In this document: in pieces, positions 49,408 to 64,000 of the stretch
How the letters are laid out: each line of letters opens with the position of its first letter
How positions within the stretch are numbered: the stretch's first letter is position 1
DNA from: Thermoanaerobaculia bacterium
Lineage (GTDB): Bacteria > Acidobacteriota > Thermoanaerobaculia > UBA5066 > Gp7-AA6
Assembly: GCA_036493875.1 (NCBI GenBank)
Contig: DASXPB010000050.1
Coordinates: 14,577-78,576 of the forward strand
Direction of reading: 5' to 3'
DNA length: 64,000 nt
Program-made: the position numbers and the translations under genes
Notes under the pieces: model-generated
The model's database searches: none
What the model saw: only the letters and a program-made list of their open reading frames with translations
Told to the model about the DNA's origin: nothing

Positions 49408-50460
49408 ATGGACTTGAGCTCGGAATCACAACCGGCGACCGCGCCGCGGACCCTTCGGCCCGAAGACTTTCGCGGCCGCTCGGTGCTCGTCACCGGCGCC
49501 GCGGGGTTCATCGGCTCGCATCTCGTCGACGCGCTGGTGGAGCGAGGCGCGCGCGTGCGTGCGCTCGACAACCTCGCGACCGGAAAGCGGGAGAACCTGA
49601 GCGCCTCGGCCGGATCGATCGAATTTCTCGAGGGAGACCTGCGCGACGCCGAGACGTGTCGCCGCGCGTGCGCGGGGGTGTCCTGGGTGTTCCACCAGGC
49701 GGCCCTGGGCTCGGTGCCGCGCTCGATGAAGGATCCGGCGACGACCTTCGCGGTGAACGTCTCGGGAACCGCGAACGTCCTCGCGGCCGCGCGGGACGCC
49801 GGCGCGACCCGGGTCGTGTATGCCTCCTCGTCCAGCGTGTACGGCGACAGCGCGCGGCTTCCCAAGCGGGAGGGCGAGGAGGGGAGGCCCGTTTCGCCCT
49901 ACGCGCTCTCGAAGAAGATGAACGAGCAACTGGCGGAGATCTTCGCCTCGTGCTTCGGCATGGAGACGGTCGGGCTCCGCTACTTCAACGTCTACGGCCC
50001 GCGCCAGGATCCGGACGGTCCGTACGCCGCGGTCATTCCGCTGTTCTTCCGCGCGGCGCTGCGCGACGAGCCGGCGCTGATCCATGGAGACGGAACCCAG
50101 ACGCGCGACTTCACGTTCGTCGGCGACGCGGTGGCGGCCAATCTCCTCGCCGCGACGGCGCCTCCGGCGGCGTGCGGACGCGCCTACAACGTGGCCGCCG
50201 GACGCCGGACGAGTCTCCTCGACCTCTCCCGCGCCATCCGCGAGATCGTGGGCGGCGCGCCCGCTCCGCGGCACGGTGCGCCGCGGCCGGGCGACGTCCC
50301 GCACTCGCTCGCCGACCTCTCGGATGCCGGCCGTCTGCTCGGCTACGGCCCGAGCGTCCAACTCGAGGACGGCCTGCGCCGGAGCCTGTCTCACTATCGG
50401 AGTCTCGTCGCCGACGTCGAGCGGCCGACGCCGGCCGCCGGATCCAGGAAGGACGCCTGA
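49408..50460 (+). CDS. NAD-dependent UDP-sugar 4-epimerase (WbpP/TviC-like SDR, 350 aa)
   Basis: In frame of track ORF 48541..50460. VLVTGAAGFIGSHL, ASSSSVYG, catalytic YALSK, RYFNVYGPRQDP. Pairing with the upstream dehydrogenase is the classic UDP-GalNAcA-type module. Confidence 0.88.
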   Translation: MDLSSESQPATAPRTLRPEDFRGRSVLVTGAAGFIGSHLVDALVERGARVRALDNLATGKRENLSASAGSIEFLEGDLRDAETCRRACAGVSWVFHQAALGSVPRSMKDPATTFAVNVSGTANVLAAARDAGATRVVYASSSSVYGDSARLPKREGEEGRPVSPYALSKKMNEQLAEIFASCFGMETVGLRYFNVYGPRQDPDGPYAAVIPLFFRAALRDEPALIHGDGTQTRDFTFVGDAVAANLLAATAPPAACGRAYNVAAGRRTSLLDLSRAIREIVGGAPAPRHGAPRPGDVPHSLADLSDAGRLLGYGPSVQLEDGLRRSLSHYRSLVADVERPTPAAGSRKDA

Positions 50461-51326
50461 TGAGCGCCACGCATCCCGCCGAACCCGTTTCCCCGATGGT
50501 GGTGATCCGGCCGACCAAGGGCTGGGCCGCCTTGCGTCTCAACGAGGTGTGGGAGTACCGGGAGCTCCTGTTCTTCCTGGCCTGGCGCGACGTCAAGATC
50601 CGCTACAAACAGACCGCCCTGGGCGCAGCCTGGGCCGTCCTCCAGCCGCTCCTGACGATGGTCGTGTTCACGATCTTCTTCGGCAACCTCGCGAAGGTCG
50701 GCTCGGACGGGCTGCCGTATCCGATCTTCTCGTACACCGGACTGCTTCCGTGGACGCTGTTCGCGCAGGCGCTGACGCTGTCCTCGGCGAGCCTGGTGAC
50801 GTCGTCCAACCTGATCAAGAAGGTTTACTTCCCGCGCATCGTGATCCCGATGGCCGCCGTGCTGTCGGGGGTCATCGACTTCGGCGTGTCGATGGTCGCG
50901 CTCCTCGGTCTCATGGCCTACTACAAGATCTGGCCGTCCTTCCTGGTGATCTGGATTCCCGCGATCTTCCTCCTCGCGTTGGCGGCGTCGCTCGGCGCCG
51001 GCCTGTGGCTCGCGACTCTGAACGTCGAGTACCGGGACGTGCGCTACGTGGTCCCGTTTCTGGTTCAGATCTGGCTCTTCGTGACGCCCGTCATCTATCC
51101 CGCGAGCCGCGTCACCGCGAAGCTCGCCGAGCACGGGCTGCCGGGCTGGATCTACGGGCTGAACCCGATGGCGGGCGTGGTCGAGGGATTCCGCTGGGCT
51201 CTCCTCGGCCGCACGCCGTTTCCGGCGCAGCTGCTCGCCACGAGCGTGGTGGTCACCCTCGTCCTGCTCGTTACGGGTTCGTTCTACCTCCGTCGCATGG
51301 AAGCGACCTTCGCGGACATCGTCTGA
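50460..51326 (+). CDS. wzm: ABC-2 type polysaccharide/O-antigen export permease (288 aa)
   Basis: In frame of track ORF 49656..51326; the ATG shares a base with the upstream TGA. WEYRELLFFLAWRDVKIRYKQTALGAAWAVLQPLL is the characteristic ABC-2 N-terminal block. Six hydrophobic helices. Confidence 0.9.
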   Translation: MSATHPAEPVSPMVVIRPTKGWAALRLNEVWEYRELLFFLAWRDVKIRYKQTALGAAWAVLQPLLTMVVFTIFFGNLAKVGSDGLPYPIFSYTGLLPWTLFAQALTLSSASLVTSSNLIKKVYFPRIVIPMAAVLSGVIDFGVSMVALLGLMAYYKIWPSFLVIWIPAIFLLALAASLGAGLWLATLNVEYRDVRYVVPFLVQIWLFVTPVIYPASRVTAKLAEHGLPGWIYGLNPMAGVVEGFRWALLGRTPFPAQLLATSVVVTLVLLVTGSFYLRRMEATFADIV

Positions 51327-52684
51327 TGAGCCGACTCGCCATCCGGGTCAAGGACCTGGGCAAGCAATACACCCTGGGGCGCTCGCGCGCGAGCTACCGG
51401 ACGCTGCGCGAGACGCTCATGGAGGCCGTCGCGCGTCCGTTCGAGCGCGTCAAGATCGGCCGTAGCGGCGGGCGGCCTCCAGCCGAGACGATCTGGGCGC
51501 TCCGGGACGTCAGCTTCGAGGTGGGCGACGGCGAGGCAGTGGGCGTCATCGGGCGAAACGGCGCCGGCAAGAGCACGCTCCTGAAGATCCTCTCGCGCAT
51601 CACGATGCCGACGCAGGGGCGAGCGGAGATCCACGGCCGCGTGGGATCGCTGCTCGAGGTGGGCACCGGGTTCCATCCCGAGTTGACCGGCCGCGAGAAC
51701 ACGTACCTGAACGGCGCGATCCTCGGCATGCGCAACCGCGAGATCGACAAGCGCTTCGACGACATCGTGCAGTTCGCGGAGCTCGAAAAGTTCGTCGACA
51801 CTCCCGTCAAGCACTACTCGAGCGGCATGTACATGCGGCTGGCGTTCGCGGTCGCGGCGCACCTCGAGACCGAGATCCTGCTGATCGACGAGGTCCTCGC
51901 GGTGGGCGACCTCGCGTTCCAGAAACGCTGCCTCGGCAAGATGGAGGAAGTCGCCGCCGCGGGCCGGACCGTCCTCTTCGTGAGCCACAACATGACCGCT
52001 GTGTCCGCGCTCTGCGGGCGCGCGATCTGGATCGAGTCCGGAAGCCTCGGAGCGGACGGGCCCGCCGACGAGGTCACGGGGCTTTACCTCCAGGCGCTCG
52101 CGTCGGGGGAATTTCAGTTCGTCAACGCGGAGCACGGGCTCAAGATCGAGAGCGTCACGCTGCGCAACGGAGCCGGCGAGCGCACGCAGTTCTTCAATCC
52201 CGGCGACGACCTGTGCGTCCAGATCGCCTTCGAGGCGGAGAAGCCACTGCCGGGCGTCTACGTCCGCCTCCTGATCGAGAGCCTCCAGGGCTCCTGCTTC
52301 TCGGCGAACATGCTGCTCGACGGCCAGCGGCCGGATGCGCTCGAGGGCAAGGGCGTCCTCGCGTGCAAGTTCAAGTCGCTGCCGCTGCTGCCGCAGTCCT
52401 ACACGGTAAAGATGGCGGTCGTCGGACCCGACGCGCGCGAGCCGATCGTCCGCGTCCAGGAGGTCGCCTCCTTCACCGTGAACGGCCAGGCGGAGGACTA
52501 CGGCTTCTCCGGCGAGTTCTTCCACCGGTTCGTGGCGCATGCCACATCGGTCGTCGTCCCCTATGAATGGATCATGCCCGACGGAACCGTGAAGCCCGTC
52601 TTCGTCAGAGACGGCGTGTCGGTTCCACCGGACGAGCGGGGCTCGGCGCTCGGCGTCGGCGCGCCCGGAGAGGTGAAACGATGA
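51326..52684 (+). CDS. wzt: Polysaccharide/O-antigen export ABC ATPase with an extra C-terminal domain of about 190 aa (452 aa)
   Basis: In frame of track ORF 50084..52684. Walker A GRNGAGKST, FHPELTGRENTYLNG, signature YSSGMYMRLAFAVA, Walker B ILLIDEVLAVGD, H-loop FVSHN. A beta-rich C-terminal extension (KIESVTLRNGAGERTQFFNPGDDLCVQIAFEAEK...) resembles Wzt carbohydrate-binding domains. Confidence 0.9.
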   Translation: MSRLAIRVKDLGKQYTLGRSRASYRTLRETLMEAVARPFERVKIGRSGGRPPAETIWALRDVSFEVGDGEAVGVIGRNGAGKSTLLKILSRITMPTQGRAEIHGRVGSLLEVGTGFHPELTGRENTYLNGAILGMRNREIDKRFDDIVQFAELEKFVDTPVKHYSSGMYMRLAFAVAAHLETEILLIDEVLAVGDLAFQKRCLGKMEEVAAAGRTVLFVSHNMTAVSALCGRAIWIESGSLGADGPADEVTGLYLQALASGEFQFVNAEHGLKIESVTLRNGAGERTQFFNPGDDLCVQIAFEAEKPLPGVYVRLLIESLQGSCFSANMLLDGQRPDALEGKGVLACKFKSLPLLPQSYTVKMAVVGPDAREPIVRVQEVASFTVNGQAEDYGFSGEFFHRFVAHATSVVVPYEWIMPDGTVKPVFVRDGVSVPPDERGSALGVGAPGEVKR

Positions 52685-53733
52685 CGGCGAGTCCCGAACC
52701 GCGATTCGACTGGTCCGACAAGTCCGTGCTGGTGACCGGCGGCACCGGCTCCTTCGGCAGGAAATTCATCGAGATCATGCTGAAGGAGTTCCGGCCTGCG
52801 CGGCTCATCGTGTTCTCGCGCGACGAGCTCAAGCAGCACGACATGCGCCAGGTGTTCTCCGACCGCGAGGGCAAGCCGATGCGCTACTTCATCGGCGACG
52901 TCCGGGACACGGAGCGGCTCCGCCGCGCGTTCCAGGGCGTCCAGATCGTGGTCCATGCCGCCGCGATGAAACAGGTGCCCGCCTGCGAGTACAACCCGAT
53001 CGAGGCCGTCATGACGAACGTCAACGGCGCGCGCAACGTCATCTCGGCGGCTCTCGACGCGGGTGTGCAGAAGGTGCTTGCGCTCTCGACCGACAAGGCC
53101 GTCAACCCGGTCAATCTCTACGGGGCGACGAAGCTCGTCGCGGAGAAGCTCTTCACGCAGGGCAACGCGTACAGCGGCAGCAGCCCCACGCGCTTCTCCT
53201 GCGTTCGGTACGGCAACGTGATCGGCAGCCGGGGAAGCGTCATCCCGCTGTTCCAGCAGCAGCGGAAGAACGGGTTCGTCACCGTGACCGACCTGCGGAT
53301 GACGCGGTTCTGGATCAGCCTCGAGCAGGGCGTGCGCTTCGTCATCCGCAGCATCGAGCGGATGCACGGGGGAGAGGTCTTCGTGCCGAAGCTGCCGAGC
53401 GCCGCGCTGCGGAGCCTGGCCGAGGCGGCGGCGCCGGGGTGCCGCATCGAGACCATCGGAATCCGACCCGGCGAGAAGCTGCACGAGGTCCTGGTCTCGC
53501 AGGACGAGGCGCGGAACACGCTCGAGTTCGACGACATGTTCGTCGTGAAGCCGGCGCCGCGCTGGCTCTTCGGGGCGGACCCGTGGACGCTCGGCCGGCC
53601 CCTGCCGGAGGGCTTCACCTACGCGAGCGACAACAATCCGGAGATGCTGACGACCGAGGAGATCCGCGAGATGGTCGAGGAGACGACCGCGCGGCCGACG
53701 CCCATTCATCCGACGCCCGTGACGACGACCTGA
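52681..53733 (+). CDS. pseB: UDP-N-acetylglucosamine 4,6-dehydratase (inverting), PseB/FlaA1-type (350 aa)
   Basis: In frame of track ORF 52567..53733; ATGA overlap with wzt. VLVTGGTGSFGRKF, FIGDVRD, HAAAMKQVP, LSTDKAVNPVNLYGATKL, RYGNVIGSRGSVIPLF are hallmark PseB/CapD-short blocks. Confidence 0.92.
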   Translation: MTASPEPRFDWSDKSVLVTGGTGSFGRKFIEIMLKEFRPARLIVFSRDELKQHDMRQVFSDREGKPMRYFIGDVRDTERLRRAFQGVQIVVHAAAMKQVPACEYNPIEAVMTNVNGARNVISAALDAGVQKVLALSTDKAVNPVNLYGATKLVAEKLFTQGNAYSGSSPTRFSCVRYGNVIGSRGSVIPLFQQQRKNGFVTVTDLRMTRFWISLEQGVRFVIRSIERMHGGEVFVPKLPSAALRSLAEAAAPGCRIETIGIRPGEKLHEVLVSQDEARNTLEFDDMFVVKPAPRWLFGADPWTLGRPLPEGFTYASDNNPEMLTTEEIREMVEETTARPTPIHPTPVTTT

Positions 53734-53786
53734 GCACATCCATGGCGCGTACTCCGACCCCCGCCGCCCCGCCCAAGGCAGAGACC

Positions 53787-54932
53787 ATGATCCCCTATGG
53801 CCGCCAGTGGATCGACGACGACGACGTCGCCGCGGTCGACGCGGTGCTGCGGTCCGACTGGCTGACGACGGGACCGAACGTCGAGCGCTTCGAGCGCGCC
53901 TTCGCGGCCGCCGTCGGATCGCGCGAGGCCGTGGCCGTCAGCAACGGCACGGCCGCCCTGCACACGGCCATGCACGCGCTCGGCATCGGCCCGGGCGACG
54001 AGGTCGTGGTGCCTCCGATGACCTTCGCGGCGACCGCCAATGCCGTGGTGTACCAGGGCGGCACGCCCGTCTTCGCGGACGTAGACCCCGAGACCCTGCT
54101 CCTCGACCCGCAGGCGGCCGCGGCCCGCATCACGCCGCGGACGAAGGCGATCGCCGCCGTCGACTACGCCGGGCAGCCCTGCGACTACCGCCCGCTCCGG
54201 AACCTCGCGGAGCGCCAGGGCCTGCGCCTCGTCGACGACGCCTGCCACGCGCTGGGCGGCCGCGACGGAGACCGGGCGGTCGGGACTCTCGCCGACCTCA
54301 ACACGTTCAGCCTTCACCCCGTCAAGCCCATCACGTCCGGAGAGGGCGGCATGATCACGACGGAGGATCCGGAGCTCGCGCGCCGCATGCGCGTGTTCCG
54401 CAACCACGGCATCACGACGGACCACCGCCAGCGTGAGGCCGAGGGTTCCTGGTTCTACGAGATGGTCGACCTGGGATTCAACTACCGGCTGACCGACTTC
54501 CAGTGCGCGCTCGGCGAGAGCCAGCTGCGCAAGCTCACCGCGTGGGTGGAGCGCCGGCGAGCGATCGCGCTGCGGTACGACGAGGCGTTCTCCGGAAACG
54601 GTCTGTTCACCCCGCTCGCCGTGCGGCCCGGCGTCACGCACGCGTACCACCTCTACGTCGTCCAGCTGCGCCTCGACCGGCTGCGGGCGGGGCGCCGCGA
54701 GGTGTTCGCCGCGCTGCGGGCCGCCGGCCTCGGCGTCAACGTCCACTATGTCCCGGTCCACCTGCACCCCTACTACCGGAAGCGCTTCGGCACCGGTCCG
54801 GGCCTGTGCCCGAGGGCCGAGGCCGCCTACGAGCGGATCCTGACGCTGCCCCTCTTCGCCCGCATGACGGACGAGCAGGTGCGGACGGTGATCGAGGCGA
54901 CCCTCGAGGTAACCGCCTCCTTCGCCGCCTGA
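53787..54932 (+). CDS. pseC: DegT/DnrJ/EryC1-family PLP aminotransferase, PseC-type (UDP-4-amino-4,6-dideoxy-N-acetyl-beta-L-altrosamine transaminase)
   Basis: MIPYGRQWIDDDDVAAVDAVLRSDWLTTGP, SNGTAALH, the PLP-Lys region FSLHPVKPITSGEGGMI, and FRNHGIT...FNYRLTDFQCALGESQL. An upstream in-frame ATG at 53742 is possible. Confidence 0.88.
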   Translation: MIPYGRQWIDDDDVAAVDAVLRSDWLTTGPNVERFERAFAAAVGSREAVAVSNGTAALHTAMHALGIGPGDEVVVPPMTFAATANAVVYQGGTPVFADVDPETLLLDPQAAAARITPRTKAIAAVDYAGQPCDYRPLRNLAERQGLRLVDDACHALGGRDGDRAVGTLADLNTFSLHPVKPITSGEGGMITTEDPELARRMRVFRNHGITTDHRQREAEGSWFYEMVDLGFNYRLTDFQCALGESQLRKLTAWVERRRAIALRYDEAFSGNGLFTPLAVRPGVTHAYHLYVVQLRLDRLRAGRREVFAALRAAGLGVNVHYVPVHLHPYYRKRFGTGPGLCPRAEAAYERILTLPLFARMTDEQVRTVIEATLEVTASFAA

Positions 54933-54942
54933 GGAATCTCCG

Positions 54943-56427
54943 ATGAAGAAGTTCAAGGACGTCGAGACGACGCGGATCCAGGCGCACAGGGACCCTGCGC
55001 GCGACTCGGTCCACCGCGCCTCGCTACTCGTCCCGGAGCTGCCGGGGGCGGTCGCCGAGATCAGCTTCGTCAACCACTTCCTGCTGAAACGGGGATATCC
55101 GCACGTCGCCTGCCGAATCACCGCCATCGACGCGCAGGGGCAGCGCATCGAGGCGCGCCTCCATCGAATCGAGGAGCCGAGGGTTTATCGATTCCGGCTC
55201 ACCGGCAGCGTGGACGCCCCGGTCGAGACGTATATGGTCGAGTTCTTCGCGGCCGACAATCTCTTCATCCCGTTCCCGGCGGTGATGGTCAACCACCACG
55301 GGCCCGGCTTCTACAACACCGTCCACGCCTTCAACCGGGTGCTCAACGACGTCTTCGAGAACGACGCCATCAACGCCCAGCAGGGCGCGGAGGCGTCGAT
55401 CGACGTCGACCTCTCGGGGGGCCGCGACACCTTCGCCGTGTTCACCTCCGGGCCCACGGCGTGCCGCGGGGAGCTGGCGCTCGACCTCGCGACTCCGGGC
55501 CGCGCGTACGAGGCCGCCGTGGCACTGGACCGGCCGCGGTTGACCCAGCAGTTCCTGTCCGTGCGCGAGATCTTCCCGGACCTCGACGGCGCGACCTCGG
55601 GCGTGCTCCGGATCCGCCAGCCCGAGCAATTCCTCTTCTACGGAAGGATGCTGGCGGGCATCCGAGCGCCTGACGGCTCGTTCAGCGCGAACCACAGCTA
55701 CTACGACTGCTCGGGATTGCCCGAGTACTGGGAGGACGGCCGCGGCTCGTACCGGAGCTATCCGCACTTCGCGTCGTTCCGGAGCGCGATTCGCATGTAT
55801 CCGGTTCAGTCGCCGGGCGGACTCCAGCTGAGCGTGGGCCTCCACGACGCGGACGGGAAGGAGCTCGCGCGGGCCACGGCCGGCTGCGTGGAGAGCCCCG
55901 GCCCGCGGGTGCTCGAGGCCGACGTGGAGACGCTCGCGCGCGGCGCCGGCGTCGCGCCGGAAGACGTGCGCACGTTCGTCGTGTACGCCGATTCCCCGGG
56001 CGGCGCCGTGCCGTGCCGCGCGAATCATCAGCTGGCCTACTCGAGCGGCGGCCTCTCCTCGTCGATCAACGTCTCCCTCTTCAACCCGAACGTGTACACG
56101 CCGAAGCGGCCCGGACTCACCTGGGCGCAGTCGATCGTCGGCGACGGGATCGATTCGCGCTTCGCCATCGTCGGCAACTCGCCGTCCGCGGACGCCTGCG
56201 ACGTCGAGATGGCGTTCTACGACGAGTCCGGCCACGTGGCGGACCTGACCCGCCGTCTCACCGCGGGCGGCGCGGTGGAGATCGACCCCGCGCGCGACCT
56301 CGCCCTCGGCGGAGGCGAGCCGCGGCCGGTCTGGGTGATCGCGCGATGTGCTCGGCCCGACGTCTCGATCTTCGGGGTGACCCGGGACCGCTCGACCGGA
56401 AACTGCAGCGGGGAGCATGGGTTCTAG
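54943..56427 (+). CDS. Hypothetical protein, 494 aa, no recognisable family; embedded in the nonulosonic-acid gene set
   Basis: Clean ORF 10 nt after pseC, with coding-like composition and no signal peptide or TM visible. I recognise no catalytic motif. Overlaps the downstream methyltransferase by 11 nt. Confidence 0.6.
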   Translation: MKKFKDVETTRIQAHRDPARDSVHRASLLVPELPGAVAEISFVNHFLLKRGYPHVACRITAIDAQGQRIEARLHRIEEPRVYRFRLTGSVDAPVETYMVEFFAADNLFIPFPAVMVNHHGPGFYNTVHAFNRVLNDVFENDAINAQQGAEASIDVDLSGGRDTFAVFTSGPTACRGELALDLATPGRAYEAAVALDRPRLTQQFLSVREIFPDLDGATSGVLRIRQPEQFLFYGRMLAGIRAPDGSFSANHSYYDCSGLPEYWEDGRGSYRSYPHFASFRSAIRMYPVQSPGGLQLSVGLHDADGKELARATAGCVESPGPRVLEADVETLARGAGVAPEDVRTFVVYADSPGGAVPCRANHQLAYSSGGLSSSINVSLFNPNVYTPKRPGLTWAQSIVGDGIDSRFAIVGNSPSADACDVEMAFYDESGHVADLTRRLTAGGAVEIDPARDLALGGGEPRPVWVIARCARPDVSIFGVTRDRSTGNCSGEHGF

Positions 56428-57163
56428 GAGCTCCGAGATCGGGCCTCCCCCGACGCGGCCCGAGCTGCAGGCGGCGATGGTCGACCCCGCGAACTACGGG
56501 TCGGCGTACTTCGCGCACCGGCAGAAGAACGACCCGGTCCGCCTGGCCGCGTTCGCCATCGAGAGGCGGCTGCTCGAGGAGCGTCTGGACCCGAGTGTCT
56601 TTCTCAAGGGGCGCGTCCTCGACGTCGGATGCTCCACGGGCGAGTTCCTCGAGACGATCGGATGGGACCTCTCGCAGGCCTTCGGGATGGAGGTCTCGGA
56701 TTTCGCGCGGCAGCGCGCGCAAAGCGCCGGGATCTCGTTCGCGAAGACGATCTTCGACGAGGAGAATTTCTTCGACCTGGTGGTCTTTCGCGGAACGATC
56801 CAGTACCTGCCGAATCCGTTCGAGTACCTCTACGCGGCGTACCGGGCCCTGAAGCCCGGCGGCACGCTCTTCCTCCTGGCTCCCAACACGAACTCACCGT
56901 ACTACCGCGCGTTCGGGACGCTGCCGTACCTCGAGGAGCACCTCCACTTCTGGATCCCGAGCGACGCGTCGCTCCGGATGGTGCTGCGCAACTGCGGGTT
57001 CCGGAGGATCGACGTCACCTTCCCGTACCTCGGCTCGCCTTACGCGCGGCCGGTCCGGGACCACCTCAAGTTCTTGGTGAAGCGTCTCTTCCGGACCGGG
57101 CACAAGTTCGCGTTCTGGCGAAACAGCATGTACGTCTTCGCCGAGAAGCCGGCGGATCAGTGA
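56417..57163 (+). CDS. Class I SAM-dependent methyltransferase (248 aa)
   Basis: Motif I RVLDVGCSTGEF. Post-I and motif II/III-like DLVVFRGTIQYLPNP and LKPGGTLFLLAPN. Confidence 0.8.
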   Translation: MGSRSSEIGPPPTRPELQAAMVDPANYGSAYFAHRQKNDPVRLAAFAIERRLLEERLDPSVFLKGRVLDVGCSTGEFLETIGWDLSQAFGMEVSDFARQRAQSAGISFAKTIFDEENFFDLVVFRGTIQYLPNPFEYLYAAYRALKPGGTLFLLAPNTNSPYYRAFGTLPYLEEHLHFWIPSDASLRMVLRNCGFRRIDVTFPYLGSPYARPVRDHLKFLVKRLFRTGHKFAFWRNSMYVFAEKPADQ

Positions 57164-57936
57164 TGGGAAGTCTCGGCGGAAACACGGTCGCCATCATCCA
57201 GGCGCGCGTGGGCTCGCGGCGGCTGCCGGGCAAGGTCCTGGCGCCCATCGTGGGCCGCTCCATGCTCGAGCGCGTCGTCGAGCGCGTCCAAGCCGCCACC
57301 CGGGTGGACCGGGTCGTCGTCGCGACCTCCGACGATCCGCGCGACGACGCGGTCGAGGCGATCTGCCTTCGGAGGCGATTCGACTGCTTCCGGGGCAGCG
57401 AGTCAGACGTGCTCGGCCGCTACGTCGGCGCGGCCGCGCGATACTCGGCCGACCCGATCCTGCGGATCACGGCGGACTGCCCGCTGATCGACCCGGAGGT
57501 GATCGACCGCGTCGTGGACGCCTTCGCGGGAAAGGGACTCGACTACGCCTCGAACATCAACCCGTCGACCTTCCCCCACGGGCTCGACACCGAGATCCTC
57601 TCGGCGGAGGCGCTCGGGCACGCGGATCGCGACGCCCGGTGGCAGTCGGAGCGCGAGCACGTCACGCTTCACATCCGCCAGCACCCGGAGCGCTTCCGCA
57701 GCGTCAACGTGACTCACACGCCGGACCTGTCGGGCCGGCGCTGGGTCGTGGACGAGGCGACCGACCTCGAGTTCGTCCGGGCCGTCTACGAACGGCTGGG
57801 GGATCGGCCCTTCGGCATGGCGGACGTGCTCGCCCTGCTCTCGTCGGAGCCCGAGCTCGCGCGCATCAACGCGGGCATCCCGCGAGACGAAGGCCTCAAG
57901 AAGTCGCTCGCCGAGGACCAGCTGGTGCGCCCATGA
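57163..57936 (+). CDS. Cytidylyltransferase-family protein (SpsF/PseF-like, CTP_transf_3; 257 aa)
   Basis: In frame of track ORF 56629..57936. VAIIQARVGSRRLPGKVLAPIVGRSMLERVVERV..., ITADCPLIDPEVID. Located between the methyltransferase and pseG. Confidence 0.8.
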   Translation: MGSLGGNTVAIIQARVGSRRLPGKVLAPIVGRSMLERVVERVQAATRVDRVVVATSDDPRDDAVEAICLRRRFDCFRGSESDVLGRYVGAAARYSADPILRITADCPLIDPEVIDRVVDAFAGKGLDYASNINPSTFPHGLDTEILSAEALGHADRDARWQSEREHVTLHIRQHPERFRSVNVTHTPDLSGRRWVVDEATDLEFVRAVYERLGDRPFGMADVLALLSSEPELARINAGIPRDEGLKKSLAEDQLVRP

Positions 57937-59027
57937 GGTCCCCGTCGGCAGCGTCTTCGATGCTCGGCACGCCGACGCAGGGTTCGCTGCTCGTCCGCGT
58001 CGAGGCGGACGCGAAGGGCGGCACGGGGCACGCCATGCGCTGCATCGCGCTCGCCCAGGCCTGGCAGGACGCCGGCGGCGGTCCCGTCCGCTTCCTGATG
58101 ACCCACTGCGGCGAGGGGCTCGCCGCGCGGATGCGGCGCGAGGAGATCGCGCTGGAGCGCGTCGAGGGGGCACCGGCGCCGGGGAGTCAGGCGGATGCGG
58201 CGCAGACGCTCGCACTCGCGCGGGCGGGGCTCACCTCCTGGATCGTGGTCGACGGCTATTGGGCGGACGCGGCCTACACGACGAGCCTGTGCGGCCAGGG
58301 CCCCGGACTCCTCTGCATCGACGACCTCGGCGAGGCGGGTCCTTATGCGGCGGACCTCGTGCTGAACCAGAACCTGTATGCGGAGCCGAAGATGTACGCC
58401 GACCGAGCGTCCCACACCGAGCTCTTGCTCGGCGCGGACTTCGCGCTGCTTCGGCGCGAGTTCTCGGCGTACCGGGGGTTCCCGCGGACGATCCCCGCAC
58501 AGGCGCGGCACATCCTCGTCACGCTCGGCGGCAGCGATCCTGCGAACCTCACGCGGCTCGCGCTGCGGGCTCTCGCGGGGTTCGCCGGCGCCGCCGAGGT
58601 CCGCGTCCTGGTCGGGCCCGAGAATCCCCGCGGGGAGGCGCTCCGTGCCGAGGCGGCGAAGGCCGGGCTCGCGGGGAGTCTCCTCACCGGCGTCGAGGAC
58701 GTTCCGGGACTGCTCGCGTGGAGCGACCTCGCGGTGACCGCGGCCGGCAGCACGTGCTGGGAGCTCGCGTTCCTCGGCGTGCCCGCGCTCACGATCGCGG
58801 TGGCGCCGAACCAGGGTCCCATCGCCGAGAGCCTGTCCCGCGCCGGAATCGCGCGGAACCTGGGCTGGTACGGCGGCGTGAACGAGGAGGGCCTGACGCG
58901 CGCGGTCGCGGAGCTGTCGCGCGACCACGCGGCCCGCGCTCGTCTTTCGGAGGCGGGACGGCGGCTCGTCGACGGCGCCGGTGCCGAGAGGGTGGCTCGC
59001 CGGCTGGCCACGGCGCAGGCGGCCTGA
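57933..59027 (+). CDS. pseG: UDP-2,4-diacetamido-2,4,6-trideoxy-beta-L-altropyranose hydrolase (PseG/SpsG-type GT-B fold, 364 aa)
   Basis: In frame of track ORF 57639..59027; ATGA overlap. RVEADAKGGTGHAMRCIALAQAW, HILVTLGGSDPANLT, SDLAVTAAGSTCWELAFLGVPAL. Confidence 0.82.
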   Translation: MRSPSAASSMLGTPTQGSLLVRVEADAKGGTGHAMRCIALAQAWQDAGGGPVRFLMTHCGEGLAARMRREEIALERVEGAPAPGSQADAAQTLALARAGLTSWIVVDGYWADAAYTTSLCGQGPGLLCIDDLGEAGPYAADLVLNQNLYAEPKMYADRASHTELLLGADFALLRREFSAYRGFPRTIPAQARHILVTLGGSDPANLTRLALRALAGFAGAAEVRVLVGPENPRGEALRAEAAKAGLAGSLLTGVEDVPGLLAWSDLAVTAAGSTCWELAFLGVPALTIAVAPNQGPIAESLSRAGIARNLGWYGGVNEEGLTRAVAELSRDHAARARLSEAGRRLVDGAGAERVARRLATAQAA

Positions 59028-59048
59028 GGAGAAGAGGAAGAGGAAGCC

Positions 59049-59807
59049 GTGCGCGTCGTCCTGTTCGCCAACAACCGCCTGGGCGCGAGCGTCGCGGAGT
59101 TCCTGCGCGCTCGCGGCGAGAACATCGTCGGGCTCGTGGTGCACCCGCCGGCGCGCCGCAGGCTCGGGGACGAGATCCTCGCGGCGAGCGGCGTGCGGCC
59201 CGGCGACGAGCTTGACGGGTCGGCGCTCGCCCGCGAAGACGTCCGGGCCGCGATCGCGGCGCGCGGCGCCGAGGTCGGCGTCTCGGTGATGTTCGGCTAC
59301 ATGCTGCGCCCGCCGATCCGGAGCCTGTTTCCCCGCGAGTGCATCAATCTCCACCCGGCGTACCTGCCCTGGAACCGGGGCGCCTACCCGAACGTGTGGA
59401 GCATCGTCGAGGGCACGCCCGCCGGGACGACGCTGCACTACGTCGACGACGGCGTCGACACGGGCGACATCATCGCGCAGCGCCGCGTCGAGGTGGCGCC
59501 GCACGACACGGGAAAAACGCTCTACGGGAAGCTCGAGTCGGCGAGCCTCGAGCTCTTCCGGGACACGTGGCCGCTCTTCGTCGCCGGCCGCGCGGGACGC
59601 ACGCCGCAGTCCGGGGAGGGGAGCTATCACCGAGTTCGCGACGTCGAGACGATCGACGCGATCGATCCCTCCCGCGCCTACGCGGCGGGCGAGCTGGTCG
59701 ACATCCTGCGGGCGCGGACGTTCCCGCCCCACGCCGGGGCATACCTCACCGCGGGGAGCCGGCGCATCCACGTCCGCGTCGATCTCGAGGAGGCCGAGGC
59801 GCCATGA
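59049..59807 (+). CDS. Formyltransferase (Fmt/PurN N-terminal-domain family, sugar N-formyltransferase candidate, 252 aa)
   Basis: GTG start. MRVVLFANNRLG..., catalytic block INLHPAYLPWNRGAYPNVWSIVEGTPAGTTLHYVDDGVDTGDII (the HxxxLP...D pattern of N10-formyl-THF-dependent transferases). Confidence 0.82.
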   Translation: MRVVLFANNRLGASVAEFLRARGENIVGLVVHPPARRRLGDEILAASGVRPGDELDGSALAREDVRAAIAARGAEVGVSVMFGYMLRPPIRSLFPRECINLHPAYLPWNRGAYPNVWSIVEGTPAGTTLHYVDDGVDTGDIIAQRRVEVAPHDTGKTLYGKLESASLELFRDTWPLFVAGRAGRTPQSGEGSYHRVRDVETIDAIDPSRAYAAGELVDILRARTFPPHAGAYLTAGSRRIHVRVDLEEAEAP

Positions 59808-61975
59808 GCCGCGTGAGCCGACTCCCCGCGGGCGCCGGCGGCGCCGACTACGGCCGCGACAACCTGCTTGCCGGCCTGCGGGCGGTCGGGATCGGCGCCG
59901 GCGACCTCGTGTTCGTGCACGCCTGCGCCGAGGCCCTGGGCCAGGCGGACGGCGTCACGGACGAGGCGGGCCTCGCCGCGCTCCTGTACGAGGCCGTACG
60001 CGAGGCGGTGGGTCCGAAGGGCACCGTCCTCGTGCCGACCTTCACGTTCTCCTTCTGCCGGCAGGAGGTCTTCGATCCGGTGCGCTCGCCGGCGATCCGC
60101 GGACTCTGGAACACGTTCCCGGCGTTTCCCGAGCACGTGCGCACGCTGCCGGGAGCGATCCGCTCGCGGGACCCGATCTTCTCCGTCGCGGGCGTGGGGC
60201 CGCGCGCCCAGGAGCTTCTGACCGCGCTGCCGCCGGTGTGTCTCGGCGACGACAGCGTTTTCGCCCGGCTCCGGAAGGCGGGCGGGAAGATCGTCCTCTT
60301 CGGCGTCGGACTGTACGAGGCCACGTTTCGCCACTACGTCGAGTCGGTCTGCCGGGTGCCCTGGCGGTTCGACAAGCTCTTCACCGGCCGCATCCGTGAG
60401 GACGGCCGGGAGCGCAAGGAGGGCTGGCTGTACAACGTCCGGATCGCTTCGCCCGAGGCGGACCCGAAGGGCGACGCGCTCGAAGCGCTGGCGCGAGACC
60501 GCGGCGTCCGCCGCGCGGCGCCCGTCGGCAAGGACGAGGTCGTGGCGGCCGATGCCCAGGCGTTCTACGAGCTGACGGTCGACGCGCTGTCCCGCGACCC
60601 CTGGTTCTCGGCCCGGGGTCCGGCCTCGGATCCCCTCGCCCTCGAAGACGCCCGGACCGGCGGCAGCGCGCAGGCGGCGCCGCTGCCCGAGTCGGCGACG
60701 ATGGGGCAGATCATCGACGGTCTGTGGCGATTGCCGCGGGACCTCGTGTCGCGCGGATTCGACGAGGCGATGCTCGCGCTCGCGGAGCAGGTGCCGATGA
60801 CCGTGCACGAGTATCCGAGCGGCGCCGAATGCTGGACCTGGATCCTGCCCGAGAAATGGTCCTGTCAGGAGGCGTACCTCGAGAGCCTCGACGGGCGGCG
60901 TCTGTTCTCCTACGCCGATCACCCGCTACACGTCGTGTCGTATTCGCTGCCCTTCGAGGGGATCGTGTCGCGCGAGGAGCTGTTGCGGCACCTGCACGTC
61001 CATCCGCGGATTCCGGAGGCGATTCCCTTCATCTTCAAGTACTACGACCGCGACTGGGGCCTCTGCTGCTCGCAGGCGCAGCGTGAGACGCTCACCGACG
61101 AGAAGTACCGCGTCGTGATCCGGAGCGCGTTCAGCTACGGCACGCTCAAGGTGGGGGAGATCGTGATTCCGGGCCGGACCGAGGAGACGATCGTCCTGGC
61201 CGCGCACCTCTGCCATCCCACGATGGTGAACGACGATCTGACGGGCGTGGCGGTGGCGATCGACGTGGCCCGCGCGCTCCGCGAGCGACGGAACCTTCGC
61301 TACACGTACCGGATCCTCATCGTCCCGGAGACCGTCGGAACCGTCGCGTACCTCGCCAGCCACGAGCACGTCATCCCGAAGATGCGCGGGGGCCTGTTCC
61401 TCGAGATGCTCGGCAAGGATCATCCGCACTCGCTCCAGAGCTCGCTCTTCGGCGGAACGGTCGTCGACTCCTGCTTCGAGGAGGCCCTCCGCGAACGGGA
61501 CCCCGAGGCGTGGGTCGGCGCTTACCGGAAGGTCATCGGCAACGACGAGAAGCAGTTCAATGCCCCGGGCGTCCGCGTTCCGTTCCTGTCGCTCTCGCGG
61601 GTCCTGCCGATGGACCATCCCGACCATCCGTACCGCGAATACCACTCGAGCCACGACAACCCCTCGATCCTGTCGCTCCCGAAGCTCGAGGCCTCCCGCG
61701 ACCTGGTGCTGCGGATGGTCGAGATCCTCGAGCAGAACCGCACGCCGCGGAACCGCTTCCGCGGGGAAGTCTTCTGCTCCCGCTACGGGATCCACCGCGA
61801 CTGGTACACGGACCGCGAGGGCCATCGCGCGCTCTTCGCCACCATGGAGCGCATCGACGGCACGCGCTCCATCGTCGAGATCGCCCGAGACGCGGGGGTG
61901 CCGTTCCGGGAGGCGTACCGCACCGTCGTCGAGATGGAGAGCCACGGCCTGGTCGACTGGGGCGAGGGCGCATGA
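59804..61975 (+). CDS. Fusion protein (723 aa): N-terminal AAC(3)-like N-acetyltransferase domain plus a C-terminal aminopeptidase-like (M28-like/DUF4910-type) domain with a terminal winged helix
   Basis: In frame of track ORF 59339..61975; ATGA overlap. N-terminus: GDLVFVHACAEALG...GTVLVPTFTFSF...IRSRDPIFSVAGVG...VLFGVGLYEATFRHYVE follows the aminoglycoside 3-N-acetyltransferase fold pattern. C-terminus: WTWILPEKW..., TIVLAAHLCHPTMVNDDLTGVAV, RILIVPETVGTVAYL and DEKQFNAPGV are typical of the COG4310-type polysaccharide-cluster aminopeptidase-like proteins. Confidence 0.75.
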   Translation: MSRVSRLPAGAGGADYGRDNLLAGLRAVGIGAGDLVFVHACAEALGQADGVTDEAGLAALLYEAVREAVGPKGTVLVPTFTFSFCRQEVFDPVRSPAIRGLWNTFPAFPEHVRTLPGAIRSRDPIFSVAGVGPRAQELLTALPPVCLGDDSVFARLRKAGGKIVLFGVGLYEATFRHYVESVCRVPWRFDKLFTGRIREDGRERKEGWLYNVRIASPEADPKGDALEALARDRGVRRAAPVGKDEVVAADAQAFYELTVDALSRDPWFSARGPASDPLALEDARTGGSAQAAPLPESATMGQIIDGLWRLPRDLVSRGFDEAMLALAEQVPMTVHEYPSGAECWTWILPEKWSCQEAYLESLDGRRLFSYADHPLHVVSYSLPFEGIVSREELLRHLHVHPRIPEAIPFIFKYYDRDWGLCCSQAQRETLTDEKYRVVIRSAFSYGTLKVGEIVIPGRTEETIVLAAHLCHPTMVNDDLTGVAVAIDVARALRERRNLRYTYRILIVPETVGTVAYLASHEHVIPKMRGGLFLEMLGKDHPHSLQSSLFGGTVVDSCFEEALRERDPEAWVGAYRKVIGNDEKQFNAPGVRVPFLSLSRVLPMDHPDHPYREYHSSHDNPSILSLPKLEASRDLVLRMVEILEQNRTPRNRFRGEVFCSRYGIHRDWYTDREGHRALFATMERIDGTRSIVEIARDAGVPFREAYRTVVEMESHGLVDWGEGA

Positions 61976-64000
61976 GCGCGGCGACCTTCCCGCAGGCGCC
62001 GCGCCGGACGTGGCTCGTCTACACCGCGGCCACTCTGCTGAGCTTCCCGGTCTTCGAGATGCTGATCTCCGGCACCGGCGCGCGGGTCTTCGCGCGCGAC
62101 GTCTTCGACGACGGAGCGGTCTCTCGTCTCGGCGCGCTGCGGCTCGACTGGTCGGCGTTCGGGCCCGTGCTCTGGAACCGCCACCTGATGTCCGGCAACG
62201 CGTACTTCGGCCAGTTCAACGCGAGCCCTCTGGCGCTCGACAACCTCCTCTCGCTCGCGGCGACGCCCTTCCTCGCGTTCGCCGCCTGCAGCGCCCTGCT
62301 CGCGTTTCTGGCGGGCCTTTCGATGCACCTCTTCCTCGAACAGTCGGTGCGCCTGCCCCGGCAGGCCGCGCTCGCCGGCGGTCTGATCTACGGCCTCGCG
62401 TTCTGGCACTACACGTTCGGGTTCTCGGCGGCCCTGCTGCCCCTGGCGCTCTGGATCGCCGATCGTGTCGAGGCGTGGCCCGGCGGCCGACTCCGGCGTC
62501 TCGTCCCCGTCGCCGTATGCGCCGCCTTCCTGCTCTACAACTTCAGCCCCCAGCCGGCGGTGTTGACCGCGGTCCTCGGAGCCGGCTACGCGGTCGTCGC
62601 CGCGGACACACCGTCGGAGCGCCGCTCCCGCTTGCTCACCTGGGCCGGCGGCTGGGTGCTCGCGTTCGCGCTCTACGCTCCGGTGCTCTTCACCCTCCTG
62701 CGCCTGCTGCCGGATTCGCAGCGCTCGATCCGGAACAATCTCGCGTGGATTCCGGACGCCGGAACCGCGCTTCGCCTCTGGCCGCAGTACTACTTCGAGG
62801 CGATCGCCGGGCGGCCCGTCGTGGCGGCCCTCGGCGCGCGTCTCCGGGAGGCGTCGGTCGGGACCTGGTACGTCGGGTTCCTGGGAATCGGACTGCTCGC
62901 GCTGTCCATCGGGCTGCCTCGGGTCAACCGGCGGGAGAGAGCCATCCTCTGGCTGCTTGCTGCGGTGCCGCTGATCGATCTCACGGCGATGCTCCTCGTC
63001 CCCTACCAGAGTCACTTCGGCGTGCTGCGGAGCTTCGAGCTTGACCGCATTCGCCTGTTCGTGCCCTTTGTGATGGCCGCCAACGTGGCGATCGCCCTGG
63101 CAGCCCTCGGCCGCGAGAAGACGACGGAGACGCAGAGCTCTCGGGCGAGGACGCTGAGATCCGCGGCGTGCACGGCCGTGCTCGTTCTCTTCCTGGCCGG
63201 CCTCGTGGCCTGCGCCCGGGTCGCGGGCTACCTCCTGCGCCGCAGCGGCTGGCCGTCGACCGCGGCGGGGCGAGAGCGGCTGGCGGGCTGGGTCCTCGCG
63301 ACCCTCTACTACGGCATCGCCATGCTCGTCGGTGTCGCGTTTCTCTGGCGGCGCCGGCGAGCCGAGGGTGCCGCGGAGGTCGTCTCCCGAGGGGCCGTCG
63401 CCGCGCTCCTCGCCGTCCTGGCCTTCGAGCGTCTGGCCTCGTCGCGTATCGAACGCTGGATCGAGAACGAAACGCTGGCCTCTTTCGACGAGGCGCTCGG
63501 AGAGACGCCGGCGATCCGCTTCCTGCAGACGCAGCCGAATGCCGGATCGCAGCGCGTGCTGCTGCTCGGCGATACGACCCGGGCCAATCCGGGCAGCCAT
63601 CCGAATCGCCTGATGTCCCAGGGTCTCTTCTCCGCGGACGGCTATCAGCTGGTCTACCCGCTGAGGTACCACGACCTCTTCGGTCTGCTCACCAAGCCCC
63701 ACCTCGACAAGGATCCGGACCGGCGCCGGTACTTCGAGAACTGGGGGCAGCGGGCGTACGCGTTCGGGCCCGAGCTCAACCGGGACCTCGCGAGCCTCAT
63801 GGGAATCCGGTGGCTTCTGGTGCGCGGGCTTCCCTTCGCCGACGAGCACTGGCGGCTCGTTTTCGAGAAGGGCGACGAGCGCGTGTTCGAGAACCCGGAC
63901 GTCCTTCCGCGTGGATTCGTCGCGACTCGGGAGCGGCGCTATCCGAGCCACGCGGAGCTCTTCGCCGCGCTCGGCTCCGCACCCCTCGAAGAGCTGCGGC
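61972..64000 (+). CDS. Large polytopic membrane protein, YfhO-like/GT-C-like (N-terminal 676 codons; continues beyond the window end)
   Basis: Absent from the ORF track because there is no stop before the window end. ATG 61972 overlaps the upstream stop (ATGA). My translation: MSAATFPQAPRRTWLVYTAATLLSFPVFEMLISGTGARVF...GLIYGLAFWHYTFGFSAALLPLALWIADRVEAW... Near the end it reads RDLASLMGIRWLLVRGLPFADEHWRLVFEKGDERVFENPDVLPRGFVATRE, which resembles the C-terminal end of YfhO-type proteins. Confidence 0.65.
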   Translation, partial: MSAATFPQAPRRTWLVYTAATLLSFPVFEMLISGTGARVFARDVFDDGAVSRLGALRLDWSAFGPVLWNRHLMSGNAYFGQFNASPLALDNLLSLAATPFLAFAACSALLAFLAGLSMHLFLEQSVRLPRQAALAGGLIYGLAFWHYTFGFSAALLPLALWIADRVEAWPGGRLRRLVPVAVCAAFLLYNFSPQPAVLTAVLGAGYAVVAADTPSERRSRLLTWAGGWVLAFALYAPVLFTLLRLLPDSQRSIRNNLAWIPDAGTALRLWPQYYFEAIAGRPVVAALGARLREASVGTWYVGFLGIGLLALSIGLPRVNRRERAILWLLAAVPLIDLTAMLLVPYQSHFGVLRSFELDRIRLFVPFVMAANVAIALAALGREKTTETQSSRARTLRSAACTAVLVLFLAGLVACARVAGYLLRRSGWPSTAAGRERLAGWVLATLYYGIAMLVGVAFLWRRRRAEGAAEVVSRGAVAALLAVLAFERLASSRIERWIENETLASFDEALGETPAIRFLQTQPNAGSQRVLLLGDTTRANPGSHPNRLMSQGLFSADGYQLVYPLRYHDLFGLLTKPHLDKDPDRRRYFENWGQRAYAFGPELNRDLASLMGIRWLLVRGLPFADEHWRLVFEKGDERVFENPDVLPRGFVATRERRYPSHAELFAALGSAPLEELR

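Follow-up and report, generated by a model that had tools for sequence, protein, structure and literature searches.

A pseudaminic acid-type operon of a Thermoanaerobaculia bacterium with a PseJ-like formyltransferase, an AAC(3)-DUF4910 fusion and a synthase gene just past the analysed window

The subject of this report is a cluster of genes for a pseudaminic acid (Pse)-type sugar in a 64,000-nucleotide (nt) stretch of DNA from a Thermoanaerobaculia bacterium, hereafter the window (G000:C50:14577-78576). The window is part of a 3.13-Mb metagenome-assembled genome (MAG) with a completeness of 73.6%, and it was read together with the continuation of its contig (L007), on which L007:2979 corresponds to window-equivalent position 64402. 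Pseudaminic acids decorate many bacterial surfaces, and which N-acyl variant is displayed influences recognition by phages, antibodies and hosts. According to PMC11040635, the enzymes that install most of these N-modifications are largely unknown. Raw lists of open reading frames are useless here because the window is approximately 70% G+C; genes were called from frame plots of third-position G+C together with inspection of start codons. The genes of the cluster and its continuation are as follows, with lengths in amino acids (aa).

52681-53733, + strand: PseB, UDP-GlcNAc 4,6-dehydratase (inverting), 350 aa (TIGR03589; PF02719)
53742-54932, + strand: PseC, UDP-4-amino-4,6-dideoxy-AltNAc aminotransferase, 396 aa (TIGR03588)
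54943-56427, + strand: X494, an all-beta protein of 494 aa with no family match
56417-57163, + strand: S-adenosylmethionine-dependent methyltransferase, 248 aa (PF13489 Methyltransf_23, 67 bits)
57163-57936, + strand: SpsF-type cytidylyltransferase (CTP_transf_3; PF02348, 115 bits)
57933-59027, + strand: PseG, UDP-sugar hydrolase, 364 aa (TIGR03590)
59049-59807, + strand: PseJ-like sugar N-formyltransferase, 252 aa (PF00551 Formyl_trans_N and PF18216 N_formyltrans_C)
59804-61975, + strand: AAC(3)-DUF4910/DUF2172-HTH_47 fusion, 723 aa (Pfam)
61972-64401, + strand (window-equivalent; the gene leaves the window at 64000): DUF6044 multi-pass membrane protein, 809 aa in full (PF19510)
64402-65487, + strand (window-equivalent; L007:2979-4064): PseI (TIGR03586; PF03102 and PF08666, SAF)

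The core enzymes and the synthase past the window's edge

PseB, PseC and PseG all score above the cut-offs of their equivalog models: PseB with 479.6 bits on TIGR03589 against a cut-off of 407.75 (model positions 3-323 of 324), PseC with 466.4 bits on TIGR03588 against 423.5, and PseG with 173.4 bits on TIGR03590 against 153.55. From pseB to the window's end the gene junctions range from an 11-nt overlap (-11) to a 21-nt gap (+21). The transporter gene wzt overlaps pseB by 4 nt, all junctions from wzt through pseI are overlapping or near-abutting, and nothing resembling a terminator lies between 49.5 and 63.1 kb, within a run of + strand genes that the frame plots show unbroken from approximately 41.9 kb to the window's end. 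These scores, the PF02348 domain and the junctions bear out the original prediction that pseB, pseC, an SpsF-like cytidylyltransferase gene and pseG are present and translationally coupled.

The same prediction, made from the window alone, also described a pathway lacking a recognisable synthase, PseI. A Pfam and NCBIfam domain scan does find neither a NeuB domain nor a GNAT within 52.7-62 kb, as had been stated. However, a canonical pseI begins 402 nt past the window's end in the same operon, its ATG (L007:2979) being the base after the stop codon of the DUF6044 gene (L007:2978). The product scores 478.4 bits on TIGR03586 against a cut-off of 340.25 (model positions 2-327 of 327), a genome search with the PseI model places the match at C50:79044-80024 on the strand of the operon, and the sequence from the window's end to pseI is without N's or gaps. 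The apparent lack of PseI is therefore a window-edge effect, and the accompanying surmise of a synthase beyond the window was correct. A pathway truly devoid of PseI, in which a non-orthologous synthase such as the 494-aa protein X494 takes its place, would accord with the lack of a NeuB domain inside 52.7-62 kb, but it is already refuted by the canonical pseI and sits poorly with the gene company of X494 in other genomes (see below), such that we give it virtually no weight. Directly after pseI follow, in order, a gene for a GFO/IDH/MocA oxidoreductase and one for a BFO_1060-family transferase (246 bits against a cut-off of 200).

The cytidylyltransferase of the cluster reaches no more than 26 bits with TIGR03584, the model for PseF (cut-off 205.7). 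In many related, complete-looking Pse-type loci, however, no cytidylyltransferase other than the SpsF type was detected, and from its gene context the enzyme is likely to be the CMP-Pse synthetase, that is, a functional PseF. Judged from these assignments, the locus very probably encodes a complete core pathway to a CMP-activated Pse derivative.

The PseH step and the formyltransferase

No PseH equivalog is found in the assembled genome, where the best match scores 60.5 bits against a cut-off of 93.1 (TIGR03585) and lies on another contig (C60); nor is there a GNAT among the genes scanned from window position 41.9 kb to L008:11018. Because the MAG is 73.6% complete, these searches do not prove that PseH is absent from the genome. 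The original prediction had named pseH and pseI directly downstream, with the extra transferases acting on unrelated substrates, as the finding that would overturn it: pseI does lie there, whereas no pseH over the cut-off occurs anywhere in the assembly.

The gene directly after pseG encodes a sugar N-formyltransferase whose top match in the PDB is "formyltransferase PseJ" (6ci2/6ci4, E 2e-33, approximately 43% identity over 128 residues), ranking above dTDP-sugar formyltransferases such as 4nv1; the INLH and DTGDII segments fall within the aligned core. According to PMC11040635, PseJ is the enzyme that completes the route to Pse5Ac7Fo. A formyltransferase in place of PseH is accordingly an already described solution, and the present locus is a further case. 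The position after pseG recurs in the loci L017-L019 and in L106. Among the retrieved loci that contain both pseG and a complete AAC(3)-DUF4910 fusion, six have a formyltransferase without a GNAT, three a GNAT without a formyltransferase, none both and two neither; in the three with a GNAT, it is fused to PseG (L132, 556 aa), adjoins PseG (L130) or is part of a WbqC-GNAT protein nearby (L170). Since a formyltransferase or a GNAT, but rarely both, adjoins pseG in related loci, the formyltransferase most likely carries out the PseH step, and on its sequence relationship and position we consider it probable that it formylates the 4-amine. PseJ itself is reportedly the subject of a formyltransferase study by Reimer and colleagues in ACS Chem Biol of 2018.

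Some 40 kb downstream the same locus holds a second place at which such an enzyme might act. There, at L008:6977-11018 (contig C50:102976-107017), lies a trio of genes for a DegT aminotransferase, a Bac_transf protein of 227 aa and a PglF/CapD-like dehydratase of 648 aa, with genes for an ATP-grasp protein, an AMP-binding enzyme and a PHP protein just upstream; by implication, the first residue is a 4-amino sugar of the bacillosamine type. It could accordingly be argued that the formyltransferase, the fusion or both serve that sugar while an unlinked PseH acylates the Pse precursor. No acetyltransferase was identified alongside the trio, the incompleteness of the genome leaves room for an unlinked PseH, and contig C60 does bear a weakly PseH-like GNAT. 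That GNAT falls well under the PseH cut-off, however, the ATP-grasp and AMP-binding enzymes beside the trio could serve its sugar, and the formyltransferase and fusion genes stand between pseG and pseI here and again among Pse genes in the unrelated metagenome loci L106, L102 and L148. We regard this explanation as quite improbable, and a PseJ-like formyltransferase acting at the PseH step as the better account.

The fusion protein, X494 and the tailoring steps

The fusion protein joins an AAC(3)-type N-acyltransferase domain (aa 18-262), a DUF4910/DUF2172 zinc-site domain (aa 303-645) and an HTH_47 domain (aa 651-717), with Pfam scores of 108.7 bits for PF02522 (Antibiotic_NAT, gathering threshold 25), 221.6 for PF16254, 99.4 for PF09940 and a weak 19.2 for PF16221. 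The H-x-x-E segment of AAC(3) enzymes is kept, RHYVE aligning with LHYAE of AAC(3)-VIa and LHHAE of AAC(3)-IIIb; from the AAC(3)-VIa literature we take these residues to be the catalytic ones. An aminoglycoside-resistance gene was considered and rejected, as the domain reaches 87 bits on NF033082 against a cut-off of 270 and all subfamily models are far below cut-off. Residues 302-703 align to CA_C2195 (3k9t) with an E value of 1e-61, and the zinc ligands of that protein, His189, Asp195 and His324 (Das et al., 2014; PMC4000134), are aligned to identical residues of the fusion.

Both families have been met together in Campylobacter jejuni. Cj1295 is a DUF2172, M28-like protein (PMC6321876) for which genetics shows a requirement in making flagellin Pse with a 5-N-(2,3-di-O-methylglyceroyl) group; the authors of that work suggested that it removes the C5 acetamido group and thereby allows another acyl group to be attached (PMC3068675). 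The adjoining Cj1296/7 carries the annotation aminoglycoside N3'-acetyltransferase (PMC3025981). By its domain composition, the fusion of the window represents a single-chain form of the Cj1296/7 and Cj1295 pair. Its homologs number more than 1,550, and the same domain set is present in each of the top 120. Gene neighbourhoods were collected as 80 metagenome loci around fusion homologs, of which those of at least 8 kb were judged; in most of these the fusion stands among genes for NeuB/PseI, a cytidylyltransferase, a 4,6-dehydratase and a DegT aminotransferase, and a formyltransferase is present in a minority only. In one genome of the phylum sample (G071) the halves are encoded by separate, adjacent genes next to pseB and pseC. 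A genome of the same family (G393; L090, G393:C2:1827000-1846999) has two fusion paralogs in tandem, each immediately preceded by a DegT aminotransferase gene of its own, in a legionaminic acid (Leg)-like locus with a distant formyltransferase. A further Pse locus with the fusion also carries, at L132:3433-6610, genes for a 396-aa protein without a Pfam hit, HisH-like and HisF-like proteins and a methyltransferase, a set that presumably resembles the one for acetamidino groups.

The original prediction had assigned N-4 acylation to the formyltransferase, the AAC(3)-like domain or both; the formyltransferase, as a relative of PseJ, is the better supported of the two, and it is improbable that the AAC(3) domain serves as a PseH alternative. 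If it were, it would supply the N7-acetyl group and the formyltransferase would act elsewhere, for example at N5 after deacetylation by the DUF4910 domain, yielding Pse5Fo7Ac. It speaks for such a scheme that formyltransferase and fusion genes are immediate neighbours in this locus, in L017-L019, L102, L106 and L148, that the fusion directly follows a DegT aminotransferase in many Leg-like loci, and that the split pair in G071 adjoins pseB and pseC with no formyltransferase detected there. The PseJ precedent nonetheless concerns the 4-amine of a UDP-sugar, and in the fusion loci without a formyltransferase (L130, L132 and L170) a PseH-like GNAT is found at pseG, leaving no need for AAC(3) as a PseH. 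Moreover, we know of no natural Pse5Fo7Ac. This division of labour therefore seems unlikely to us. Because the fusion coexists with either a GNAT or a formyltransferase, we read it as an extra tailoring step and disfavour it as a replacement for PseH. The most economical mechanism, by analogy with the proposal for Cj1295, would be an exchange at N5 in which the zinc domain deacetylates and the AAC(3) domain re-acylates; we put this forward as a credible suggestion that falls somewhat short of an even chance. The tightly packed core has no acyl carrier protein (ACP) or FkbH genes that would point to an acyl donor for the AAC(3) domain.

The second unusual component is X494, for which no Pfam or NCBIfam hit was obtained and whose matches in the ESM Atlas are unannotated clusters only. 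It has 479 homologs of approximately 500 aa, all "hypothetical," and at 50% clustering the family comprises 522 representatives, including a more distant subgroup of 520-530 aa. The gene was located in 43 genome loci, from Acidobacteriota, Elusimicrobiota, many Alphaproteobacteria (Pelagibacter, SAR116), SAR86, Actinomycetota, Myxococcota, Spirochaetia and Nitrososphaeria archaea, nearly always near pseB, pseC, pseG, pseI or other nonulosonic acid (NulO) genes; an SpsF-type cytidylyltransferase is among the genes that co-occur with it across phyla. Only two of 24 other sampled genomes of the same genus carry it, in keeping with a glycan locus that varies between genomes. Eight of the nine X494 loci that have pseG without a complete fusion also contain a GNAT, and pseI or neuB accompanies X494 in most longer loci. 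X494 thus replaces neither PseI nor PseH, and both roles were rejected for it. The fusion-centred metagenome loci gave no match to X494, and the two components are independent modules that share this locus.

In its predicted structure (AlphaFold2; pLDDT 89, pTM 0.88) X494 is all-beta and folds into four sandwich domains. The second of these (residues 144-256) superposes on TM1070 with Z 11.0 and a root-mean-square deviation of 3.1 Å over 104 of 116 residues, and the other domains give generic beta-sandwich matches only (Z 5-6.5). TM1070 and the sensory rhodopsin transducer of Anabaena (ASRT) belong to a superfamily of beta-sandwich sugar-binding proteins (PMC2739507). The whole-protein shape has no close match, Foldseek returning loose Ig/macroglobulin arrays at a TM score of approximately 0.12, and a four-fold ASRT repeat is unsupported: hhalign of the domain slices gave a weak signal between the third and fourth domains (33% probability, E 4.5e-4). 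Among the 68 invariant columns of the family many are His, Asn, Asp or Arg, a pattern compatible with either an enzyme or a protein that binds sugar tightly.

Directly downstream, and overlapping X494 by 11 nt, lies the methyltransferase gene, a homolog of which (66% identical) stands directly upstream of the fusion in L103. The commonest immediate neighbour of X494 elsewhere is likewise a methyltransferase, TylF-like and directly upstream, in 18 loci. Other recurrent neighbours, in L019, L024 and further X494 loci of other phyla, include a cytidylyltransferase that is fused to, or lies beside, a class-III aminotransferase (12 loci), a fusion of a MaoC-dehydratase and a short-chain dehydrogenase/reductase (11), an FkbH-like protein (nine) and pyruvate kinase (four), which suggests diverse N-acyl donors. 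One homolog, P0011 (761 aa; identity 72%, query coverage 78%), carries a fused CTP_transf_3/NTP_transf_3 cytidylyltransferase domain, hinting that X494 acts near the step of CMP activation.

Taken together, these assignments make probable a complete pathway to CMP-activated Pse in which the formyltransferase replaces PseH and the fusion and the methyltransferase with X494 tailor the sugar. PseB and PseC would yield UDP-4-amino-4,6-dideoxy-L-AltNAc, the 4-amine of which would be formylated by the PseJ-like enzyme instead of being acted on by PseH, that nitrogen becoming N7 of Pse; PseG would then strip UDP, PseI condense the sugar with phosphoenolpyruvate and the SpsF-type enzyme produce the CMP-sugar. 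The fusion may take off the N5 acetyl group through its zinc domain and install another acyl group through its AAC(3) domain, the methyltransferase with X494 may add or direct methylation, and the BFO_1060-family transferase encoded after pseI would add the sugar to a glycan exported by Wzm and Wzt. The product is likely to be a Pse that is formylated at N7 and tailored further at N5 and by methylation, destined for a polysaccharide exported by an ABC transporter. The scheme is built on the gene identities, their order and coupling, the presence of pseI and the lack of a PseH equivalog in the assembly, all as assigned from the sequence. More tentative still than the N5 exchange is the fuller proposition that a bifunctional N5 de-N-acetylase/re-acylase fusion and a PseJ-like enzyme together give a Pse5(acyl)7Fo-type sugar, with X494 and the methyltransferase as an undescribed tailoring pair; such a sugar would be comparable to Pse7Fo5(3RHb), the form in the pilin glycan of Pseudomonas aeruginosa 1244, which has been synthesised (PMC11040635).

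A number of observations weigh against this pathway. PseH could lie on the unassembled 26% of the genome, the match of the formyltransferase to PseJ spans the catalytic core only (residues 73-200), and the enzyme is below every NCBIfam equivalog cut-off. Strict mutual exclusion of formyltransferase and GNAT is not upheld, as L019, in which the fusion is cut by the end of the locus, carries both; moreover, the alternation is supportive and not proof, because the loci are few and mutually related. The 4-amino sugar of the distal trio could likewise need an N-acyltransferase. As for the fusion, DUF4910 is without the full M28 catalytic set (PMC4000134), stand-alone and more distant DUF4910 genes in other Acidobacteriota sit outside nonulosonic acid loci, and no genes of the kind that make acyl donors (ACP, FkbH) are present in the core cluster.

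The surrounding polysaccharide locus and known systems

Upstream of pseB the operon continues into export functions, the last two genes being the following.

50460-51326, + strand: Wzm, ABC-2 permease (Pfam PF01061)
51326-52684, + strand: Wzt, ABC ATPase with a Wzt_C glycan-binding domain (PF00005 and PF14524)

From their domains, Wzm and Wzt are assigned as a polysaccharide exporter. Before them lie genes for a tetratricopeptide repeat protein, a beta-barrel porin, Wza-like and Wzc-like proteins, a NusG paralog, a UDP-sugar dehydrogenase and an epimerase. The NusG paralog (PF02357; 47318-47902), flanked by wzc on one side and the sugar genes on the other, probably serves as an antiterminator specific to this locus, of the UpxY/RfaH kind. 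The downstream genes encode GT4 and GT2 transferases, three Polysacc_deac_1 proteins, a DUF2334 protein, a Wzy_C protein and the AMP-binding, ATP-grasp and PHP proteins, and the far end of the locus is formed by the DegT aminotransferase, the Bac_transf initiating transferase and the PglF-like dehydratase. On this gene content, the whole is assigned as a surface-polysaccharide locus of approximately 65 kb from a diderm bacterium, an uncultured soil acidobacterium (Thermoanaerobaculia-like), and a flagellin glycosylation island was rejected in view of that context. The nearest loci are in MAGs of Acidobacteriota/Thermoanaerobaculia, with X494 identities of 92% (L017) and 87% (L018). In both, the DUF6044 gene keeps its position between the fusion and pseI; its product has approximately nine hydrophobic segments and is possibly a membrane glycan-processing enzyme. 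The minus strand of the window from 1 to 35700 holds a long co-directional series of very large genes with no relation to the glycan locus.

A second NulO set lies in the same operon at L007:6522-9506 (window-equivalent 67945-70929). Its PseF/NeuA-like cytidylyltransferase (L007:6522-7211) scores 156 bits against the PseF cut-off of 205.7, its NeuB scores 352 bits and is below the NeuB_NnaB cut-off, and its NeuC, at 388 bits, is over its cut-off. A legionaminic acid route was rejected for this set: the genome has no LegC equivalog (best 227 bits against 420), and for that reason a Neu5Ac-type route is the simplest. The set is followed by a gene for a 492-aa protein with weak TIGR04396/BFO_1060-like character, which may be its transferase.

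For the core pathway the locus brings nothing new, beyond showing a PseJ-type solution in polysaccharide loci of soil Acidobacteriota. It does package two recurrent parts, the fused Cj1296/7-Cj1295-type protein with its more than 1,550 homologs and the X494 family with its roughly 520 clusters at 50% identity, in one tight operon, and both are good candidates for in vitro study of Pse diversification. If the proposed function is true, a soluble single-chain version of Cj1296/7-Cj1295 would make the enzymology of N5 diversification directly testable. The locus also illustrates that calls of a "missing gene" near the end of a window require flanking sequence.

Compared with the canonical CMP-Pse5Ac7Ac pathway of Helicobacter pylori and C. 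jejuni, the present locus shares PseB, PseC, PseG and PseI at equivalog level, but differs in having no PseH equivalog, an SpsF-type cytidylyltransferase instead of a TIGR03584 PseF, and extra tailoring genes. With the PseJ pathway it has in common a stand-alone sugar N-formyltransferase at the place of PseH in a pse cluster, predicting Pse5Ac7Fo; the enzyme here is longer than PseJ (PDB 6ci2, 6ci4, 6ci5, 6edk), with an N_formyltrans_C dimerisation domain as in dTDP-sugar formyltransferases, and its setting is a diderm acidobacterial host, an exported polysaccharide and the additional fusion, X494 and methyltransferase. Cj1295 and Cj1296/7 of C. jejuni NCTC 11168 represent the same two domain families and likewise sit inside a Pse locus, whereas here they form one polypeptide with AAC(3) N-terminal, without phase-variable G tracts and with no ACP/FkbH-type donor genes in the core cluster, and the target is a polysaccharide and not flagellin. 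CA_C2195 of Clostridium acetobutylicum has the DUF4910, DUF2172 and HTH_47 domains and the zinc site in common with the fusion, and its gene context is alike (spsE/neuB, spsF, a methyltransferase and N-acetyltransferases), but it is a stand-alone protein of 434 aa where the present one is fused to an AAC(3) domain. X494, in contrast to the ASRT superfamily, has four beta domains, approximately 68 invariant residues and no Pfam match, including to ASRT. Finally, the nonulosonic acid locus of Tannerella forsythia shares with this one a BFO_1060-type transferase (NCBIfam NF046086), here encoded two genes after pseI; Tannerella belongs to another phylum, and the glycan of the acidobacterium is probably a polymer exported by Wzm/Wzt and not a protein O-glycan.

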